Positions 49,773-58,223 of a stretch of DNA of 64,000 nt are shown in pieces. The stretch is from Candidatus Levyibacteriota bacterium. Lineage in GTDB: Bacteria; Patescibacteriota; Microgenomatia; Levybacterales; UBA12049. Position 1 is the stretch's first letter; each line of letters begins with the position of its first letter. Position numbers and translations under genes: made by a program. Under the pieces are notes generated by a model that was given only the letters and a program-made list of their open reading frames with translations, ran no database searches and was not told where the DNA came from. The stretch spans positions 83,927 through 147,926 of the forward strand of contig JAUSEW010000002.1 of NCBI GenBank assembly GCA_030651475.1, in the 5' to 3' direction.

Positions 49773-50528
49773 TTACTTAGCGAGGCAAATTTTTTTCCAA
49801 TAGAACACGTTTATTTTCTGATACTCAAAACTTGGCCAGTAATAGTTAGCTTTCATCTTGCATTTTTCAGCTATCCCCGGACACTTACTTAAAAGTGCTT
49901 TGCGGTAGATATTTTTATGTTTTTCCGCTCCCGTTAGAATTTTTCTATGGACATCTGCAAAGCTCAATATCAAACCGGTTAAAAAATCGGTTGCTTGAAT
50001 CATATTGGAAACGCCTGTAAATTCTCCGTTTTTTGCCCTATTTTTAGAATCCCGCCGATACACTTGTACAATAGTTGTATCTTTTTGTTTCAAAAAAGTC
50101 GGCAAAATAACATTACCTTGAAAACCTTTGTCGTCAATATTCAAGAGTTTCTTGTGTTGTTCATATTTTTCAGGACTGATCGAACGGCAAAGTTCGGCGT
50201 AGGCGGAAACGTATGCCATATCCTTTTTATCTAAACCATAATGGTTATCTTCAAAATAATCTTTGTTAGAAAAAAGGTTATCTTTAATGAGTATTTTAAA
50301 ATAAATATCTTCTGTTAAGAGAAAATAATCTATGAGTCTGACGGCGTAAAGAATCTGGGAATAATCTGTTGAGGAGTATTTCAACTCTCTTTTTTCATAT
50401 CCGCACTCTTTTCGGATTTTTTGAATATTTTGCATGTGGATGGTAGGCGTAGTAGTGAATAAGAAACCGACAGCCCAAATTTTGTCAGCGCCTGGAGTAT
50501 TTGATTCATCGCCGTATAGATATAACAT
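49773..50528 (-). CDS. DUF3800-family protein
   Basis: N-terminal LYLYGDES... matches the DUF3800 Y-x-DES start. It is the last gene of the defense-like operon. Confidence 0.55.
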   Translation of the reverse strand: MLYLYGDESNTPGADKIWAVGFLFTTTPTIHMQNIQKIRKECGYEKRELKYSSTDYSQILYAVRLIDYFLLTEDIYFKILIKDNLFSNKDYFEDNHYGLDKKDMAYVSAYAELCRSISPEKYEQHKKLLNIDDKGFQGNVILPTFLKQKDTTIVQVYRRDSKNRAKNGEFTGVSNMIQATDFLTGLILSFADVHRKILTGAEKHKNIYRKALLSKCPGIAEKCKMKANYYWPSFEYQKINVFYWKKICLAK

Positions 50529-50596: not shown

Positions 50597-50968
50597 CTAA
50601 TCGATCTTGCCATAGAAAGCTAGACTTCCCTTTGTAATTCTTTTGTACTTCCATCCTTGTCGCTTACAATACGCTTTGGCACTTTCACCCTTTAATTTTG
50701 TAGAAACCCATAAAAGTAAAGGCAAACCTTTTGTCTCGTGCAACTCTTTTGACCCATCTTGATATTCCACTAAAAAATCCGGTAAATAATTGTGAGTAAA
50801 ACCAAGCAGCTTATAAGGAATTCTAATCCCATGTTTTTTAGTCCAGCTTTTTACTGCCGGATCTCTTTCTAGTTCCACCATATACTCTCGTTCTAATGCT
50901 GAATCGTAACTTTCCCAACCACTAGAACTTTTTCTTAACTGTGTTAATCTTCCATGCTTTGTTATCAT
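50597..50968 (-). CDS. small TnsA-N-like PD-(D/E)xK endonuclease-fold protein
   Basis: YLPDFLVEYQDGSKELHETKG fits the D...E-x-K core of TnsA_N and restriction-endonuclease-like folds. Its start overlaps the helicase stop by 4 bp. Confidence 0.45.
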   Translation of the reverse strand: MITKHGRLTQLRKSSSGWESYDSALEREYMVELERDPAVKSWTKKHGIRIPYKLLGFTHNYLPDFLVEYQDGSKELHETKGLPLLLWVSTKLKGESAKAYCKRQGWKYKRITKGSLAFYGKID

Positions 50969-53013
50969 TTACTGGTTAATATCCCTTCAATTAGTTCAGG
51001 CCTTAAGAAAATATCATGTACTTGGTCAATCATTGCCCAGAGAATTCTTAGTTGTCTTTCATCGGCTTCCTCAATTGCCTTACCAAGCAAAAACCTTTTT
51101 GTTATATGCTGTCTAATAATTTTTATTAAATATGCTTGTCTATCATCAGGATTTCTATCATATTCAAGTAAGGAAGCTATCGCAATATTATGTGTCTGTT
51201 TAATTATTTGTTTTTTTATCTCATCTAGGCTCCAATGGTCTGTATTAGTAGCCTTCGCTAAATTCCTTACATCGATTTCAGGGAGATTTTTATCCAAAGT
51301 TGTCATATCAGAATCAAGATTTAAACTTTTAATCTGGGCAACATCTTCAGATATATTCATTTTGTGCGGGTCATATTCATACTGATCAAGGTATTTTTGC
51401 CATTCATAAATTGGTTCAACAACTTCCGGTGGTTCGGGAGTCGCTGGAATTTTTGACATATCGAGTTTTTCCTCTGCCTCTCCTATTGTCTGCTCACCTT
51501 CTTCAACGGTTTCTATTGTTTCTTTCTCTGTCGGAATTTTTGCTTCATCGATGATAATGTTTGCTGGATCAAGCTGATCCGGATATTCAGTTGCTCTTAA
51601 ATTTTCCCAAAGCCATTTATGCTTTAAGATTGGGTGATCCACTACGAATAATGATTCCCATTCCTCTGTACTTTTTCCCATTCTTCGAAGTCCTCTTCCG
51701 ATTACTTGCGGGCCATAAACAGAAAACTTTTGTCCGCCAACCTCTTTATAGCTAAACTTTCTAAACAGAACCTCAACTGCAATATTTCTTACGTCCCATC
51801 CTTCCCGAAGCATTAAAACAGAAATCACAGCATCAAATTCGGGATGTGGATTTTGATTAAGAGTTTTTGCTTGATCGACTAACTCATCATTTTGTTCATT
51901 ATGAACCAATAAAGTCTTATTGACTTCGTATTTTGGGCCGATCTCCTGCAATGCCCGATCAATATTTTCTGCGTCTGCAATTGATAGAGCAATAACAAAA
52001 AGTAATGGCTTGAATCTTGGTTGACCATCCTTTCCTCTTGGCACGGCTAATCTTTGCTTTGCTAAAAGCTCTAACCCTATGGCTAATTGTTGACGCATTG
52101 GTTTAGCGCTGGTGATATATCTTCTGGCTGGTATTTTTCTTTTTTCAATTTCTTCCCAAGGCATCTCTTCTTCCGAAATAGTTTTACCAGTTATTAAATC
52201 CTCATATGTTAATTTCACTTTCCTAACGTCAGGATGAAAAACTACAATCCTTTTAATGATTTTATCCTTCATTGCTTCGGCAATTCCGTACACAAAGATC
52301 ATCTCGCTATCTGGATGCAAACCATCCAGTCTATCCGGTGTAGCAGTTGTATCCAAGCGGAAAAATCTTTTTGGTTTCAATTTATTTATTAAATCATTAT
52401 AGATTTCTGCTTTTGTATTATGAGCTTCGTCATTAAAGATAACTATGGAATCAATATTTTCCATCAAAACTTTCCAGTTATCTCTTTTTTCGTAGATCTG
52501 CTGTATGTTTCCAATTAAAATATTATTTGCCCTAACGCCAGCAGAGCTTGCTCCTGCTTCCATAACATGATGGGAAAGTCTATCTTTAAGAGGTAAATAC
52601 GAGTTGAAGAAGAACGGAAAAATATTGTAAATATAAATATAGGAGTTCGGATCAAACTCATCTACTAACCTTGATCTGACTATTGTATTTGGCGTGAGAA
52701 CTAAAAATTTATTTTGATCATGCACAATCATCATGTAAGCAATCATTGCGCCAATGACTGTGGTCTTGCCTCCACCTGTAACTATATTTGTTAGAACATC
52801 TTTAAGCCCCAATATTTCAAAAGAATAAACGCATCTCTCAATCGCTTCAATTTGCACTTTCTTCCATTGTTTTTCGTTCCAAAGTTCAAGATTTGGTTTA
52901 AAGTGTTGAGAATTAAGGTGTTTCAAAAAAGCAATACCAGCATCAGGAATCCCTTCATAGGTTTTTCTCCACTGCTTAAAATTCGCCTCATGTGGCTTAA
53001 AAAAATACTGCAT
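50965..53013 (-). CDS. Type III restriction Res-like SF2 helicase (ResIII domain, DEAH box), apparently without its own nuclease domain
   Basis: Motif I TGGGKTT, motif II IIFNDEAHNT, motif III TATPDR, motif VI QVIGRGLRR. No PD-(D/E)xK motif is seen in the C-terminal ~200 aa. Confidence 0.75.
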   Translation of the reverse strand: MQYFFKPHEANFKQWRKTYEGIPDAGIAFLKHLNSQHFKPNLELWNEKQWKKVQIEAIERCVYSFEILGLKDVLTNIVTGGGKTTVIGAMIAYMMIVHDQNKFLVLTPNTIVRSRLVDEFDPNSYIYIYNIFPFFFNSYLPLKDRLSHHVMEAGASSAGVRANNILIGNIQQIYEKRDNWKVLMENIDSIVIFNDEAHNTKAEIYNDLINKLKPKRFFRLDTTATPDRLDGLHPDSEMIFVYGIAEAMKDKIIKRIVVFHPDVRKVKLTYEDLITGKTISEEEMPWEEIEKRKIPARRYITSAKPMRQQLAIGLELLAKQRLAVPRGKDGQPRFKPLLFVIALSIADAENIDRALQEIGPKYEVNKTLLVHNEQNDELVDQAKTLNQNPHPEFDAVISVLMLREGWDVRNIAVEVLFRKFSYKEVGGQKFSVYGPQVIGRGLRRMGKSTEEWESLFVVDHPILKHKWLWENLRATEYPDQLDPANIIIDEAKIPTEKETIETVEEGEQTIGEAEEKLDMSKIPATPEPPEVVEPIYEWQKYLDQYEYDPHKMNISEDVAQIKSLNLDSDMTTLDKNLPEIDVRNLAKATNTDHWSLDEIKKQIIKQTHNIAIASLLEYDRNPDDRQAYLIKIIRQHITKRFLLGKAIEEADERQLRILWAMIDQVHDIFLRPELIEGILTSK

Positions 53014-53065
53014 ATTTACTCAATATTAAGATAGGGTCTAATTTAATTATTACTATTGATATTTC

Positions 53066-54796
53066 TTAAACTTCATAGATCGTATTTATTTTATCTATTA
53101 TTGTGTCATAAACATACTCGAAGTTAGCGTGTGTTTTTTTAGATAACTTTTTTAGTATTGCCTTTACTTTTTTTGAAAAATAAAGAGTGGCAATAGTCTT
53201 TTCGAATGACGTATTATTTGGAATAGCTAGCTCGCTTCTAATTAATCTAATATCCTGCCCTTCAAAAAGATCCTGAAGTATTGTTTTTTTTCTTGATTTA
53301 GAATTAAGTGGTAACAACAGAAATTTTTTTCCCTCTTCATCGCCAAAAAACTTCATTGAATTCTCGAATTCCCTCTGACCTTCAACATCATTATCCCACA
53401 TAGCCAAGTATTTCAATCTCCATCCTATTGAAATTGATATAAAGTACGAAATACTTTCAGCATTTACTGATGGTAAAAATCCTAAATTTAATGTTTTTGG
53501 TTTAAATAATTCAAAACAATAGAAATCATATATTCCCTCAACTATGCATATTGATTCAAAATTAAAGTCTGTTATAAACGGTTTGATTTTGAGAGCATCA
53601 ATAATTGGTTGAACAGCCAGTCTTTTCTCTTTACTATTGTCTTTATATTCCAAAAGAGAAAGAATGCTTATTGATCCATTACTGCTTTTTTGTGCAACTC
53701 TCACGGAATTAAGCGGTATCTGCGATGGATCAAGTAAATAATGAGAATGTGTGCAGTAAATAACGACATTATTGCTAGACAAGTACGAAAGCTTCTCGCA
53801 TAATTTAGATTGAGCACTGGAATGCAGATACGACCCTGGCTCATCAAGTAAATATATAGTATCCTTATCTTCCATACTTCTAACTTTTGGGTTAAATTCA
53901 AGTTTCATAACGAAATTAAAAAACCAGTAAAATCCTTTACTTCGATCACGAATCCCAAAATATCTCTCTTTCCCCTCTATAGTTTCCTTTACAAGAAGCT
54001 TTAAGAATGGTCTCTCCTCTTTAAGGCTATAGTCAATTTGTACATCCAATCTTGCTCCTTTTTCTAAAGTAAATTTTTCCCACTCTTTTGCTAAAGTTTG
54101 ATTTAATACCTTACATGCATCTCCCAAGATACTTTGTCTTGTTAACTCTTCAATCTCCTTTAATTTAAATACTGAATAGTCATTATTTGTTTTTCTGAAT
54201 AATTGTTCAATAATTTCTAACCATCCCTTAGCTTGATTATTCTCACCTACTATTTCCATTTCTTCTTGGACAGTATCCCTGAAGTCATCGAAATATAAAA
54301 TATGCGGAGTTTTCCGAAGTATTGTATCTATCAAAAGCGTATTAATATTTGAGTAGTTTTCAAGTTCTTGGTTCTTAATCGAGTACTGTTTATTTATAAG
54401 ATCTCTCTTGATAAATAAATAGCATGTTTTCTGATCAACCCTAGAAACAAACTCTTTAAATTCTGTTAGTTCTCGTACAGCGTCTTCAGATAATCCTGAT
54501 ACATTTCCTAGTTGTTCGTGTATACTTAGGCATTCTTCTTTGCTTATCTCTATTTTTGCTGTTACTGAAGGCACTCCCTGATCGGTAGTTTTGTATAAAT
54601 TCCGGACATTTATTAACTGTCGCCCATCGTTTAGGCTATCGTTCGAAAGATCAAAAGCAAAAATTGCCCATAAAATACTAGTTTTCCCGCTTTCATTTAT
54701 GCCAATTATAGGAAGCAAGCTCCTTTTAGAGATATCTACCTCTAAATTTCCTGAAATAGCTTTATAATCAGATATTGTAAAGCTTAAATACCTCAT
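53066..54796 (-). CDS. OLD-family nuclease: ABC-type ATPase (AAA_15/21) fused to a C-terminal Toprim domain (GajA-like architecture)
   Basis: Walker A GINESGKTS, Walker B IYLLDEPGSYLHS, H-loop CTHSH, then Toprim E (CIVEGIYD) and DxD (AMWDNDVEG). 576 aa. Start overlaps the methyltransferase stop by 4 bp. Confidence 0.7.
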   Translation of the reverse strand: MRYLSFTISDYKAISGNLEVDISKRSLLPIIGINESGKTSILWAIFAFDLSNDSLNDGRQLINVRNLYKTTDQGVPSVTAKIEISKEECLSIHEQLGNVSGLSEDAVRELTEFKEFVSRVDQKTCYLFIKRDLINKQYSIKNQELENYSNINTLLIDTILRKTPHILYFDDFRDTVQEEMEIVGENNQAKGWLEIIEQLFRKTNNDYSVFKLKEIEELTRQSILGDACKVLNQTLAKEWEKFTLEKGARLDVQIDYSLKEERPFLKLLVKETIEGKERYFGIRDRSKGFYWFFNFVMKLEFNPKVRSMEDKDTIYLLDEPGSYLHSSAQSKLCEKLSYLSSNNVVIYCTHSHYLLDPSQIPLNSVRVAQKSSNGSISILSLLEYKDNSKEKRLAVQPIIDALKIKPFITDFNFESICIVEGIYDFYCFELFKPKTLNLGFLPSVNAESISYFISISIGWRLKYLAMWDNDVEGQREFENSMKFFGDEEGKKFLLLPLNSKSRKKTILQDLFEGQDIRLIRSELAIPNNTSFEKTIATLYFSKKVKAILKKLSKKTHANFEYVYDTIIDKINTIYEV

Positions 54797-56799
54797 TTTG
54801 TTACCTCCATTTTTTTACTTAAAATTGTCTCTCCTGCTAAATTATCTTGTACTTTGCACGCAACAACATACTCTCTCTCTTTATCAAATTTATGCTTCGC
54901 TTTTAACACTGCCTCAAAAATCTCTCCACGCTTTTTACCTGCCCCGTTGCGCAGCTTTACGGGGTCCTTTTTCTTTTCTCGAGATAAAACATAATCTTTA
55001 TCTGCAGAAAAATGTCCTTCCTGATAATCAAAATCCCATTGAGCATTTACAAGCCAGCCATCTTCATTTGTTGAAATTGCATCCACTGCTTCAAACTCAT
55101 ATTCCAAAAGCCCAATTTTTTTAATCTTAATATCTCCAATTACAGGAGGTTTGGAAAAACGAAGGAATAATTCCGCATCTTCAACATCGGGCATTCTTTG
55201 TAAAATCCTTTGCCTAAAGGCTTTGGAATCTAACGGAATTGCTTCCAATTCTATAGGCAGATTATATTTTTGTGAATAATTTTGCAGAGCTTTAACATAA
55301 GCCAATACTTGTCTGGAAAATCTCCAAGCAACAATTTTTGCACGGATCATTTGATTTACTTGAACTTTGGCTTTTATTTCATCGAAAAACGTTTTAATAT
55401 CCTTTACGTCAATTGATTCATTTGGATTGGGATGCCCAATATAAATTGGTTCTTGTTGCGCAGGCGGTCTATAGCCATGAGTAACTCCTGCTCCGGTATT
55501 TCGGCTCGCTCCATAAGCAGTTAAAACAAAATTTATAAATTCTTCTTGATTTAAGTTTTTAAACTTCTCAACTGGGTAAACTCCCAAATAGTAAACTTCA
55601 ATATTGGGAACTTTCTCAAAAGTGCCTTCCGTCTGTAACCCCAACTGAAAGGCTTTATTGTCAGTTGAAATATTACTTTTAACCCCGCTCATTTCCTCCC
55701 CAACTTTTACCAACCTATCTAAAGTAACGGAAACAGCCACTCTTGAAGAATCACAGCCAATAAATTTTCTTTTCAATTTCTGAGCTACAGCTAATGTTGT
55801 TCCACCTCCCACAAAAAAATCTGCTACTACCTCGCCTTCGTTTGAAGAGGCTTTTATAATTCTTTCTAAGAGAACTTCTGGTTTCTGAGTCGGGTAACCG
55901 ATTCTTTCTTTGTGAACTGCTGGAATAGTAGGGATATCCCAGACATCCTCGGGATACTTTCCTTCATCTAAATAATATTTATAGTATTTACCCATTTTAG
56001 AACTCCATTTTTTTCTAAATCTCCTTCCTTCTTCATCTTTATAGTGAAAGTTTTCCTCTGCAGAAGATTCCTTAAATGGGACTTTTACTCTTTCTATTTC
56101 AAATGTATATTTTTTGGATTTGGAGTAAAGAAAAATAATATCATGCTTCTTGCTAAAATCCTTTTTTGATTTTGCTCCCATGTGATACCACCAAATAACT
56201 TCATTTACAAAATTTTCATATCCAAAAATCTTATCCATCTCTGTTTTAATATAATGACTAGCATGCCAGTCGCAATGGACGTAAATACTGCCTGTATTTT
56301 TTAAAACTCTTCGCATTTCCCAAAGCCTAGCGTTAAGCCAAATCAAATAACTCGTTATTCCACCTTCCCAAATATCCTCAAAAGTTCTTACTTCGTTACT
56401 GTCTCCCCAAATAACGTTGTAATTTCTGCCAGAGAAAAAGGGAGGATCAATATAAATTAAGTCTATTGAATTGCTTGGAAGAGTACGTAAGACCTCTAAA
56501 TTATCCCCAAGATAGAGTTTATTAGCCGGAGATTGTGGGTCATTAAATATTACCGTATCTCCATGATTTTTAGGATGAAGTGCAGGAATATTAATATAAG
56601 GAAATACCCTATCAAATGCTTTATGGTCATCATAACCAAGAGGCGGATTTGTCGGGTCTGGTAAATTATGTAAGCGTTTCCTAAGTTTTGAAGAAACAGA
56701 AATAACACTCTTTTGATCTGGGCGTTCCTGCCCTTCGGATTCTTTCTGTATTTTCTCTAATTCCTCTTTGTCAATTACTGATTTATTCTGTGTGTGCAT
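54793..56799 (-). CDS. beta-class DNA N6-adenine/N4-cytosine methyltransferase (Type III Mod-like) with an extra C-terminal domain
   Basis: Motif IV IYIDPPFFSG comes before motif I VVADFFVGGGTTLAVA, which is the permuted order typical of Type III Mod and N4/N6 methyltransferases. A ~300-aa C-terminal extension follows. Confidence 0.8.
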   Translation of the reverse strand: MHTQNKSVIDKEELEKIQKESEGQERPDQKSVISVSSKLRKRLHNLPDPTNPPLGYDDHKAFDRVFPYINIPALHPKNHGDTVIFNDPQSPANKLYLGDNLEVLRTLPSNSIDLIYIDPPFFSGRNYNVIWGDSNEVRTFEDIWEGGITSYLIWLNARLWEMRRVLKNTGSIYVHCDWHASHYIKTEMDKIFGYENFVNEVIWWYHMGAKSKKDFSKKHDIIFLYSKSKKYTFEIERVKVPFKESSAEENFHYKDEEGRRFRKKWSSKMGKYYKYYLDEGKYPEDVWDIPTIPAVHKERIGYPTQKPEVLLERIIKASSNEGEVVADFFVGGGTTLAVAQKLKRKFIGCDSSRVAVSVTLDRLVKVGEEMSGVKSNISTDNKAFQLGLQTEGTFEKVPNIEVYYLGVYPVEKFKNLNQEEFINFVLTAYGASRNTGAGVTHGYRPPAQQEPIYIGHPNPNESIDVKDIKTFFDEIKAKVQVNQMIRAKIVAWRFSRQVLAYVKALQNYSQKYNLPIELEAIPLDSKAFRQRILQRMPDVEDAELFLRFSKPPVIGDIKIKKIGLLEYEFEAVDAISTNEDGWLVNAQWDFDYQEGHFSADKDYVLSREKKKDPVKLRNGAGKKRGEIFEAVLKAKHKFDKEREYVVACKVQDNLAGETILSKKMEVTK

Positions 56800-57095: not shown

Positions 57096-57917
57096 TTATG
57101 AAAGTTGCTTAGCCCTTTGTTTCTTAGGTAAGTAATTCTTTTTGGAAACTATTGACCTTCCAAGACGTTTTTCAAGCTTTCTTCTTGCACCGCCGGCAAT
57201 ATCACCACCTGCTTTGGCATCACTTTTAAGTTTAGGCATTCCTTTTGAATCTTCGTTGCGATGAATTTCAGTAGTAGCCCTTTCCCCAAGCATGGTAAAA
57301 ATTAACTCAAAGTCATCCATGTGATCTCTTAAGTTTTGCCGCTTTAATCCCTTTAACTTTTTGTACTGACTTGGAGTTACACCAAACATTGCTTTGGAGA
57401 TTTCAGCCGTGAGAATTTCATAATCCCTCTGTATCCTTGCTCCTCTTTTTTGCCATTCATCAGTTAATTCTTCGCGGATAGCAATACCTCTCATCCGTTT
57501 CTCTATCCAATCATCAGAATAACCTTTTGCTTTATACAAGGCTCTTGTTCTTTTGGTTGCCAGTTCAGGATCTTCTATTTCTTGGATTCTTTCATATCCA
57601 ACTCTTGCCAGCCATCTTTTGAAAGGCTCAGCTTTGGGAGAAGGGATAGACTGGATGATACGAAAAACTCCTTCGGTATTGGCACAGCTTATTTTTTGTT
57701 TTCCTCCTTTTGTTTCAATTAAAAGGGGGGTGGCAATTTGCCTCCACCCCTTGGAGATCTCGGGGTCACGTCGGCGCATATCTTTGATATACCCTTCGGG
57801 TTGAACAGAATCGGTAAGTGCTGCAACTACATCAACAATAACAAACCACCATTCATGGTGATGGATAGTCTTACGGATTTGCTTATTTCTAAAAATAGCA
57901 ATTTTGGTATCAATCAT
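57096..57917 (-). CDS. Bro-N (KilA-N-like) domain protein, phage antirepressor / DinD-like
   Basis: IDTKIAIFRNKQIRKTIHHHEWWFVIVDVVAALTDS matches the Bro-N consensus (..IR....G..WF...DVA..L). The start is set at the internal Met (MIDTK) because the upstream 48 codons include the right inverted repeat and a hairpin. Confidence 0.55.
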   Translation of the reverse strand: MIDTKIAIFRNKQIRKTIHHHEWWFVIVDVVAALTDSVQPEGYIKDMRRRDPEISKGWRQIATPLLIETKGGKQKISCANTEGVFRIIQSIPSPKAEPFKRWLARVGYERIQEIEDPELATKRTRALYKAKGYSDDWIEKRMRGIAIREELTDEWQKRGARIQRDYEILTAEISKAMFGVTPSQYKKLKGLKRQNLRDHMDDFELIFTMLGERATTEIHRNEDSKGMPKLKSDAKAGGDIAGGARRKLEKRLGRSIVSKKNYLPKKQRAKQLS

Positions 57918-57949
57918 GAATTTCAGTATAGCATGTCTGAAGAAAGGAT

Positions 57950-57971
57950 GGCCAAAGTGCCTGCCCGTCTC
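57950..57971. repeat. right 22-bp inverted repeat (cctgcccgtctctggagggagc)
   Basis: Reverse complement of 57018-57039 with one mismatch. Confidence 0.8.
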
Positions 57972-57997
57972 TGGAGGGAGCAGAAGCGACCGACTGT

Positions 57998-58019
57998 GCC
58001 CTGAGCGAAGTCGAAGGGC
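57998..58019. repeat. hairpin with the conserved loop GAGCGAAGTCGA, copy 1 (gccct-gagcgaagtcga-agggc)
   Basis: Member of a 4-copy family. Other copies at 60361-60396, 60816-60837 and 60948-60977. Confidence 0.7.
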
Positions 58020-58223
58020 TACCTTTAAAAGCAGTTCGGACTTTTTCATAAACGTCCACAAAATTCACCCTGTTATTTTAGGCATTCATCATGTCCACAA
58101 ATTCTTGCTGCTCTGTTTGCTTCAGCAATTCTTTTATCTGTATTAAAACCACAACAGTGATAATATGCGGAGCTATTAGTTGATTTTTTGCAGGTTCTTC
58201 TCTTTTGAAATTTTCTCTTTCCA

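Follow-up and report, generated by a model that had tools for sequence, protein, structure and literature searches.

We analysed a 64,000-nucleotide stretch of the genome of a Candidatus Levyibacteriota bacterium (GenBank assembly GCA_030651475.1, contig JAUSEW010000002.1, forward-strand positions 83,927 to 147,926), hereafter the window, and focused on an operon that contains genes for a DNA methyltransferase (Mod), a helicase and a 123-amino-acid (aa) nuclease. The locus probably encodes a three-subunit, Type III-like, ATP-dependent restriction-modification enzyme whose nuclease is a separate polypeptide. Mod, helicase and nuclease form the conserved core, and this layout is widespread and not peculiar to this genome. 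With moderate confidence, we regard the Type III restriction-modification plan as the known part of the system and the nuclease as a conserved separate subunit as the new part. Coordinates are window positions, the operon was read on the minus strand, and the features are collected in Table 1.

A helicase-only subunit and a separate nuclease

A preliminary description of this DNA had assigned motifs I, II, III and VI to the 682-aa helicase. All four were located (I, TGGGKT, residues 79-84; II, NDEAHN, 194-199; III, TATP, 223-226; VI, QVIGRGLRR, 436-444), together with motif V (REGWD, 403-407). The protein comprises a superfamily 2 (SF2)/ResIII motor (aa ~48-470) and a poorly conserved C-terminal region (aa 470-682), the latter being the least conserved part in an alignment of 71 homologues with identity down to 33%. 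Pfam, PADLOC and NCBIfam matched the helicase to no nuclease family, a separate Pfam scan of its C-terminal 228 aa gave no match at E<=10, and the 71 aligned homologues revealed no conserved D...(D/E)xK within aa 470-682. The claim that the helicase has no nuclease module therefore held; a nuclease motif in its C-terminus, named in the preliminary description as a finding that would speak against its reading, was looked for and not found. The segment LDPANIIIDEAK (helicase 481-492) was considered as a hidden D...DExK and rejected, being not conserved in distant homologues, without a hidden Markov model match and apparently too short in spacing for the beta-hairpin.

The next gene had been reported to overlap the helicase stop by 4 nt, and the junction indeed reads ...acc agt aaATGAtaaca..., in which the helicase TGA and the nuclease ATG share 4 nt. 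This ATGA overlap suggests translational coupling of the nuclease to the helicase. The 123-aa product, described earlier as TnsA-N-like with a candidate D...ExK core, matched Tn7_TnsA-like_N (PF08722) at E 9.7e-10 (39.3 bits against a Pfam cut-off of 26.5) and, weakly, RE_endonuc (E 0.0045, under the cut-off). Its motifs are LEREY (residues 25-29), PDFLV (63-67) and HETKG (77-81), and the candidate catalytic codons are those of E26 (50891-50893), D64 (50777-50779), E78 (50735-50737) and K80 (50729-50731). Among 36 sequences with identity down to 31%, S23, E26, P63, D64, E78 and K93 were invariant and K80 was at least 90% conserved, which is the pattern expected of an active enzyme.

AlphaFold modelling of the small protein with this 36-sequence alignment, which included distant representatives, gave a predicted local distance difference test (pLDDT) score of 89.4 and a predicted template-modelling (TM) score of 0.82. 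An earlier run on a shallow alignment (14 sequences, at least 70% identical) had given a pLDDT of 50 and was discarded. The modelled core is alpha-beta-beta-beta-alpha-beta, as expected for PD-(D/E)xK (helices 24-35 and 88-104; strands 50-54, 57-61, 65-69, 74-79 and 107-111), so that the structure prediction proposed in the preliminary description returned a nuclease fold. Foldseek against the PDB placed TnsA (1T0F/1F1Z) on top (E ~2e-5, probability 1.0, TM 0.70), followed by weaker matches to other PD-(D/E)xK nucleases. Against viral models the top matches were phage endonucleases, TnsA-N-like proteins and NUMOD3 homing-type nucleases, with E down to 2e-11. A PDB sequence search with the small protein returned only 8GY8, marginally (E 0.71 as a single sequence; E 0.55 with a profile). 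The small protein thus combines a Pfam score above the gathering threshold, the core fold and the E...D...ExK residues of TnsA-N-like PD-(D/E)xK proteins.

Homologue searches yielded 477 clusters for the nuclease (best E 1e-71; the 120 listed are 121-125 aa long and 70-89% identical) and more than 3,200 for the helicase (the 120 listed are 630-695 aa long). With these numbers of homologue clusters, neither frame is a chance open reading frame (ORF).

Tandem nuclease paralogues follow the helicase in one subclade, as a form of ~114 aa and a form of ~150-190 aa (related loci L050:3272-4254, L052:2953-3812, L055:8330-9216, L063:11875-12863 and L053:12033-12557). The longer paralogue ends in a hydrophobic, transmembrane-like tail (e.g. 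GCLGILALVSLCAVAILSALVMAL), and the E/D/ExK residues are retained in both. In L053 the tailed ORF was the sole nuclease form detected, and similar tails occur in the representatives P0254, P0262 and P0274.

Conservation of the split and its fused relatives

A one-genome-per-species scan gave 149 tblastn-confirmed matches, the best 80 of which were kept; they represent the 79 distinct loci on which all locus counts rest. ORFs were called in these loci and searched with profiles. The bacterial loci came from lineages of the candidate phyla radiation (CPR), Nitrospirota, Planctomycetota, Chloroflexota, Bacteroidota and Proteobacteria, and the archaeal loci from Nitrosopumilus/Cenarchaeum and DPANN (Woese-, Micr- and Nanoarchaeota). 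The results showed a separate nuclease ORF directly after the helicase in 71 of the 72 loci with an intact helicase and downstream sequence, the lone exception (L044) looking degraded. The methyltransferase lay upstream on the same strand in every locus with enough upstream sequence (66/66). The check for a fused version in homologous loci, suggested in the preliminary description, found a fused helicase-nuclease ORF in 0 of the related loci. Pairwise identities correlated at 0.97 between Mod and helicase, 0.94 between helicase and nuclease and 0.92 between Mod and nuclease; the three genes are therefore inherited as a unit.

The window belongs to a metagenome-assembled genome, where a split could in principle arise as a frameshift or sequencing artefact or by recent pseudogenisation of a fused Res. 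This explanation is effectively refuted: the two genes are separated in this way in 71 independent assemblies, with a start codon and a stop in each case and relative frames that vary, and both helicase and nuclease are highly conserved. The helicase-nuclease junctions mostly range from -14 to +6 nt, occur in all three relative frames and always contain a stop codon, which excludes a sequencing artefact as well as programmed frameshifting. Programmed frameshifting to a fusion was also rejected in view of some gaps that reach 104 nt or more. The split is thus real and ancient, and the tight junctions fit translational coupling.

As an additional observation, the helicases of L027 (a Hydrothermarchaeota archaeon), L006 and L019 (Gammaproteobacteria) and L015 (Planctomycetota) are 68-81% identical to the CPR copy. 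Such identity across phyla implies that the module has recently moved between phyla, and possibly between domains, unless binning contamination accounts for it.

A distant fused relative was found in the BPTD_3080 family. In the NCBIfam BPTD_3080 model (NF046055, 970 positions), the helicase matched positions 529-629 (47.8 bits) and the small protein positions 845-922 (E 1.4e-9, 36.5 bits). These are two partial matches to different parts of the model, short of the 800-bit cut-off for full-length membership, and the two proteins are homologues of the family and not members. A tblastn search against plasmids returned annotated BPTD_3080 members in Gemmobacter, Methylibium and Mycobacterium, where the enzyme neighbours a methyltransferase; on Gemmobacter plasmid p6, a 1015-aa fused enzyme adjoins a 1027-aa N6_N4 methyltransferase. 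The small protein aligned to residues 877-972 of this enzyme (36% identity, E 2e-11, with YLPDF(L/I)V in common) and the 28-sequence helicase profile to residues 91-655 (hhalign, 99% probability, E 7e-18), while the ~220 residues between the two stretches agree in position and length with the unconserved C-terminal region of the helicase.

The same-order alignment to one fused enzyme indicates that the two genes of the window are the split counterpart of a fused Res-type enzyme, with either fission or fusion as the direction of change. The enzymes share the same domains in the same order and the association with an N6_N4 methyltransferase; they differ in that the BPTD_3080 enzyme is one polypeptide, its helicase being only ~25% identical to that of the window. 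Its Gemmobacter locus (L084) has the order res - small ORF - mod, the small ORF encoding 139 aa (L084:4401-4820) and giving no Pfam match at E<=0.01. In Methylibium (L085:1774-2892), a 'PDDEXK nuclease domain-containing protein' is encoded separately, ahead of the fused enzyme. The family may be linked to the m4C (N4-methylcytosine) Type III subgroup described in Bordetella (PMC8259958).

The preliminary description had offered two readings, a split Res or the recruitment of a TnsA-like nuclease. The former is supported by the ~1015-aa BPTD_3080-family enzyme and the latter is compatible with the TnsA catalytic domain as nearest solved fold; both readings agree with the evidence and are not mutually exclusive. 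Its further suggestion, that a split changes how cleavage is licensed, is plausible.

It is very unlikely that the small protein is a selfish, homing-type or mobility (TnsA-like) nuclease merely travelling with the operon. Its closest outside families, NUMOD3/zinc-ribbon homing-endonuclease-like proteins and phage nucleases, and its best solved match, the transposase subunit TnsA, would fit such an origin. Against it, the nuclease directly follows the helicase with tight or overlapping junctions in 71/72 loci from two domains of life, co-diverges with the helicase (r 0.94) and has a homologue in the C-terminal domain of a fused restriction endonuclease. The L001 and L002 flanks that were read showed neither TnsB/C/D nor other genes for transposition. 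TnsA belongs, like the small protein, to Pfam family PF08722, and it too is a catalytic nuclease, active only as part of a multi-protein machine under ATPase control. The TnsA C-terminal domain is absent from the small protein (123 versus ~270 aa), which is 17-18% identical to TnsA. The small protein consists of the catalytic domain only, and in the window and the related loci read its neighbours are a methyltransferase, a helicase and defence cargo, unlike a Tn7-like module, in which TnsA has its C-terminal domain and is joined by TnsB/TnsC (and TnsD/E or equivalent). In a search of the representative library with the nuclease profile, no Res-type helicase-nuclease fusion was found among the top 150 matches, the only large protein there being P0326, a 2774-aa Sno-like giant.

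Comparison with Type III and other restriction systems

In the methyltransferase, motif IV (DPPF, aa 118-121) precedes motif I (FVGGG, aa 329-333), the order of the beta class. In beta-class and Type III Mod enzymes, the target-recognition domain sits between these motifs. Comparison of 18 close relatives with the window protein revealed identities of 0.15-0.37 at aa ~211-300 against 0.83-0.95 in the flanking catalytic blocks, and we regard this segment as the putative target-recognition domain of Mod. Specificity turnover in restriction-modification systems usually shows itself in this way, as a conserved scaffold around a recognition segment that diversifies. At 123 aa the nuclease is too small to include a recognition domain, so that Mod must be the subunit that recognises the site, as in Type III. 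The protein also carries a C-terminal extension of ~300 aa (aa ~365-668; 54793-55705, minus strand) with 0.5-0.84 identity among close relatives, which matched no Pfam family; dimerisation, helicase docking and extra DNA recognition are candidate roles.

A PDB profile search with the helicase returned 7CLG (E 5e-11) and the EcoP15I Res structure 4ZCF (E 1.2e-5), and the single sequence returned nothing at E<=0.1. We take 7CLG to be the Type IV enzyme SauUSI. Because these are the best solved relatives of the profile, 7CLG ahead of EcoP15I Res, the motor appears to be a divergent member of the restriction-enzyme SF2 group and not a close relative of EcoP15I. In PADLOC the helicase matched only the REase_III, mREase_IV and PbeA models. 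In one PADLOC Type III REase model, the C-terminal positions 793-846 (of 898) gave a weak match to the small protein (E 0.018).

Classical Type III enzymes (EcoP15I/EcoPI) share with the window the mod -> res order, a variable Mod segment, an SF2 'ResIII' motor and a PD-(D/E)xK nuclease at the C-terminal end of the Res unit. Accordingly, the window has a beta-class Mod with motif IV before I and its own variable segment, and SF2 helicase-like ATPase motifs in a Res subunit with a profile match to EcoP15I Res. Type III cleavage, which is ATP-dependent, calls for Mod plus Res and for two unmethylated asymmetric sites in inverse orientation, and modification gives hemimethylation of one strand. 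The differences are that the two-gene mod/res plan places PD-(D/E)xK within the Res polypeptide, whereas the nuclease is a separate 123-aa polypeptide here and in 71/72 loci; that the window helicase is only remotely similar; that the window Mod has a short variable segment (~90 aa) and a C-terminal extension of no known family; and that operons of the window type tolerate cargo genes between mod and helicase. Type III enzymes are described as Mod2Res1 complexes with an ATP-triggered switch to sliding and cleavage on the encounter of two enzymes (PMC4005696, PMC6158743, PMC11142916), and Murray et al. 2021 (PMC8259958) reported Type III systems of diverse kinds and an additional helicase gene, but no split Res.

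Several results weigh against a Type III-like enzyme. The helicase is very divergent from characterised Res subunits, matching EcoP15I only by profile (E ~1e-5) and scoring better against 7CLG. The whole methyltransferase scored higher in PADLOC for the Type II model (MTase_II, E 8e-70) than for the Type III models (MTase_III, E 2e-52). The nearest sequence relatives of the nuclease elsewhere are homing-endonuclease-like or phage proteins and not Res domains, and EcoP15I Res was not among the top Foldseek matches of the small protein.

The locus could alternatively be a methylation-based defence of another mechanism (DISARM-, BREX- or CglI/NgoAVII-like), with the helicase as translocase or sensor and the nuclease recruited conditionally; Mod2Res1 stoichiometry, sliding and two inverted sites would then not apply. 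The distance of the helicase from EcoP15I Res is about the same as from 7CLG, and a second, tail-anchored nuclease paralogue occurs in some loci, both of which would suit such a system. CglI and NgoAVII (M, R, N/H helicase) provide a precedent for restriction-modification with separate motor and nuclease polypeptides, which must interact for cleavage (PMC4267653, PMC5861437), and Hma, BREX, DISARM and Type I loci typically contain embedded cargo (Payne et al. 2024, 10.1101/2024.01.29.577857). We consider this alternative unlikely, since only three genes are conserved, no DISARM, BREX or Hma marker appeared among the PADLOC matches listed for any protein (the best 25 each for the methyltransferase and the ATPase), helicase and nuclease align to a fused Res-type enzyme in the order of its domains, and recognition must lie in the methyltransferase, as noted above. 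As regards Hma (helicase-methylase-ATPase), the embedded ATPase is not a conserved member of the module.

We therefore favour the Type III-like enzyme, and hold with moderate confidence that the system works like Type III; what we infer by analogy is that the subunits form a complex, depend on ATP and recognise a site, and how cleavage proceeds. Mod would recognise a short asymmetric site and methylate host DNA. On unmethylated DNA, the Mod-bound SF2 motor would hydrolyse ATP and leave the site by sliding or translocation. The 123-aa nuclease, presumably docked on the divergent C-terminal region of the helicase, in the position that the ~220-aa linker takes in the fused relatives, would then cut the DNA. 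The ABC ATPase and the DUF3800 gene would be independent defence passengers in or beside the cargo slot and not parts of the enzyme.

Cargo slot, operon layout and significance

Beyond the preliminary description, the helicase-nuclease pair was found to be the distal part of a mod-res operon, with an unrelated ABC ATPase embedded in it and an arrangement that is widespread. Six co-directional minus-strand ORFs span ~49.8-58.1 kb (Table 1), and the ATPase gene overlaps the methyltransferase stop by 4 nt. The G+C content is 33-35% over the helicase/ATPase/mod region (52001-56000) against ~38% for the whole window, a difference that fits horizontal acquisition. Between 49300 and 58400, scans for promoters and terminators gave nothing above shuffled expectation.

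Table 1. Features of the operon in the window
Feature	Position	Strand	Evidence
BRO-N domain protein, 321 aa, directly upstream of mod	57096-58061	-	Pfam Bro-N E 2e-12; PADLOC PDC-S13 E 4e-109
Mod-like beta-class DNA methyltransferase, 668 aa	54793-56799	-	Pfam N6_N4_Mtase E 9e-52; PADLOC
Putative target-recognition segment of methyltransferase, aa ~211-300	55900-56169	-	Hypervariable among 18 close relatives
ABC/OLD-like ATPase, 576 aa, cargo between Mod and helicase	53066-54796	-	Pfam AAA_15, AAA_21; PADLOC AriA/Old/GajA
Helicase-only Res subunit, 682 aa	50965-53013	-	Pfam ResIII E 5.9e-20; motifs located
ATGA overlap, helicase stop/nuclease start	50965-50968	-	Sequence read
Separate nuclease, 123 aa, TnsA-N-like PD-(D/E)xK	50597-50968	-	Pfam PF08722; AlphaFold; Foldseek
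DUF3800-like accessory protein, 251 aa, downstream of nuclease	49773-50528	-	Pfam DUF3800, PADLOC PDC-M04A

Among the related loci, mod and helicase abut or overlap in 35 and lie 0.3-3.9 kb apart in 31, where the slot contains almost entirely co-oriented, mostly unrelated genes. Given 35 loci with an empty slot and 31 with unrelated cargo in it, the ATPase of the window is cargo, outside the conserved three-gene core. Pfam and PADLOC searches of 39 slot proteins, including the window ATPase, identified DUF3800/PDC-M04A as the commonest cargo (9/39). Other cargo comprised NYN, Schlafen AlbA_2 with HATPase_c_4, CAP12/Pycsar-type TIR, UvrD/GajB-like helicases, ABC ATPases, HNH, PHP/Ppl, a trypsin-like peptidase and BRO-N/PDC-S13. 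As in the loci of Payne et al. 2024, co-oriented and highly diverse defence-type cargo lies between core genes; the three-gene family differs in being a further host, with the slot specifically between mod and helicase.

The window ATPase has a Walker A motif (GINESGKTS, 32-40) and LLDEPG (316-321). It matched AAA_15 (E 2e-10) and AAA_21 (E 1e-8) in Pfam, and AriA (E 8e-15), Old (E 1e-12), GajA (E 6e-11), HEC-01A and HEC-02A in PADLOC (all five models E 1e-7 to 1e-14; the matches to HEC-01A/HEC-02A, AriA and Old are weak). TOPRIM-like motifs were seen by eye only in its C-terminal third (VEGIYD, 419-424; WDND, 467-470) and would, if TOPRIM is present, make it an OLD-family nuclease; the C-terminal 197 aa gave no Pfam domain even at E<=10. 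The DUF3800-like protein matched its Pfam family at E 0.0036, below the cut-off, and PDC-M04A at E 1.5e-6. A BRO-N homologue (E 4e-107) lies inside the mod-helicase slot of L082 (L082:9125-9976), whereas the window copy is upstream of mod, so the same passenger can occupy different positions around the module. The BRO-N gene is probably another defence-island passenger; like the DUF3800 gene downstream of the nuclease, it is part of the repertoire of cargo found in the slot.

A published description of a Type III-like system with a trans-encoded TnsA-like nuclease was not found in the literature searched, which was incomplete and did not include REBASE. Searches on split Type III Res, a TnsA-like restriction subunit and BPTD_3080 likewise gave nothing describing the separate-nuclease arrangement. 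GenBank labels the core genes "DNA methyltransferase", "DEAD/DEAH box helicase family protein" and "hypothetical protein". Because of these generic labels and the partial PADLOC Type III REase matches (helicase E 2e-8), the restriction capacity of CPR bacteria, and of archaea such as Nitrosopumilus, may be underestimated, which calls for a correction of annotation.

Type III is the textbook case of one nuclease per Mod2Res1, so that two enzymes must meet for a double-strand break. It is possible, if doubtful, that the freedom of the nuclease is functional here: it might be loaded as a dimer or in variable stoichiometry, or its recruitment might license cleavage, while the tailed paralogue would tether cleavage to the membrane and the mod-helicase junction would be a dedicated landing slot for interchangeable defence genes. 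With a dimer or variable stoichiometry, one Mod-helicase complex could make a double-strand break; alternatively, nuclease recruitment would take the place of a collision of two enzymes as the licensing event. A tailed, catalytically intact paralogue would place cleavage at the membrane, where foreign DNA enters, and a landing slot would let the restriction-modification operon carry such exchangeable genes in bacteria and archaea alike.

The mod-helicase cargo slot extends the guilt-by-embedding approach to a further host system. A family with a detachable 123-aa nuclease would offer a direct means of studying the communication between motor and nuclease, and a compact toolkit in which motor and cutter can be separately expressed, titrated and mutated. 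In outline the biology is not surprising; the family, however, is large, present in both bacteria and archaea, poorly annotated and experimentally attractive.

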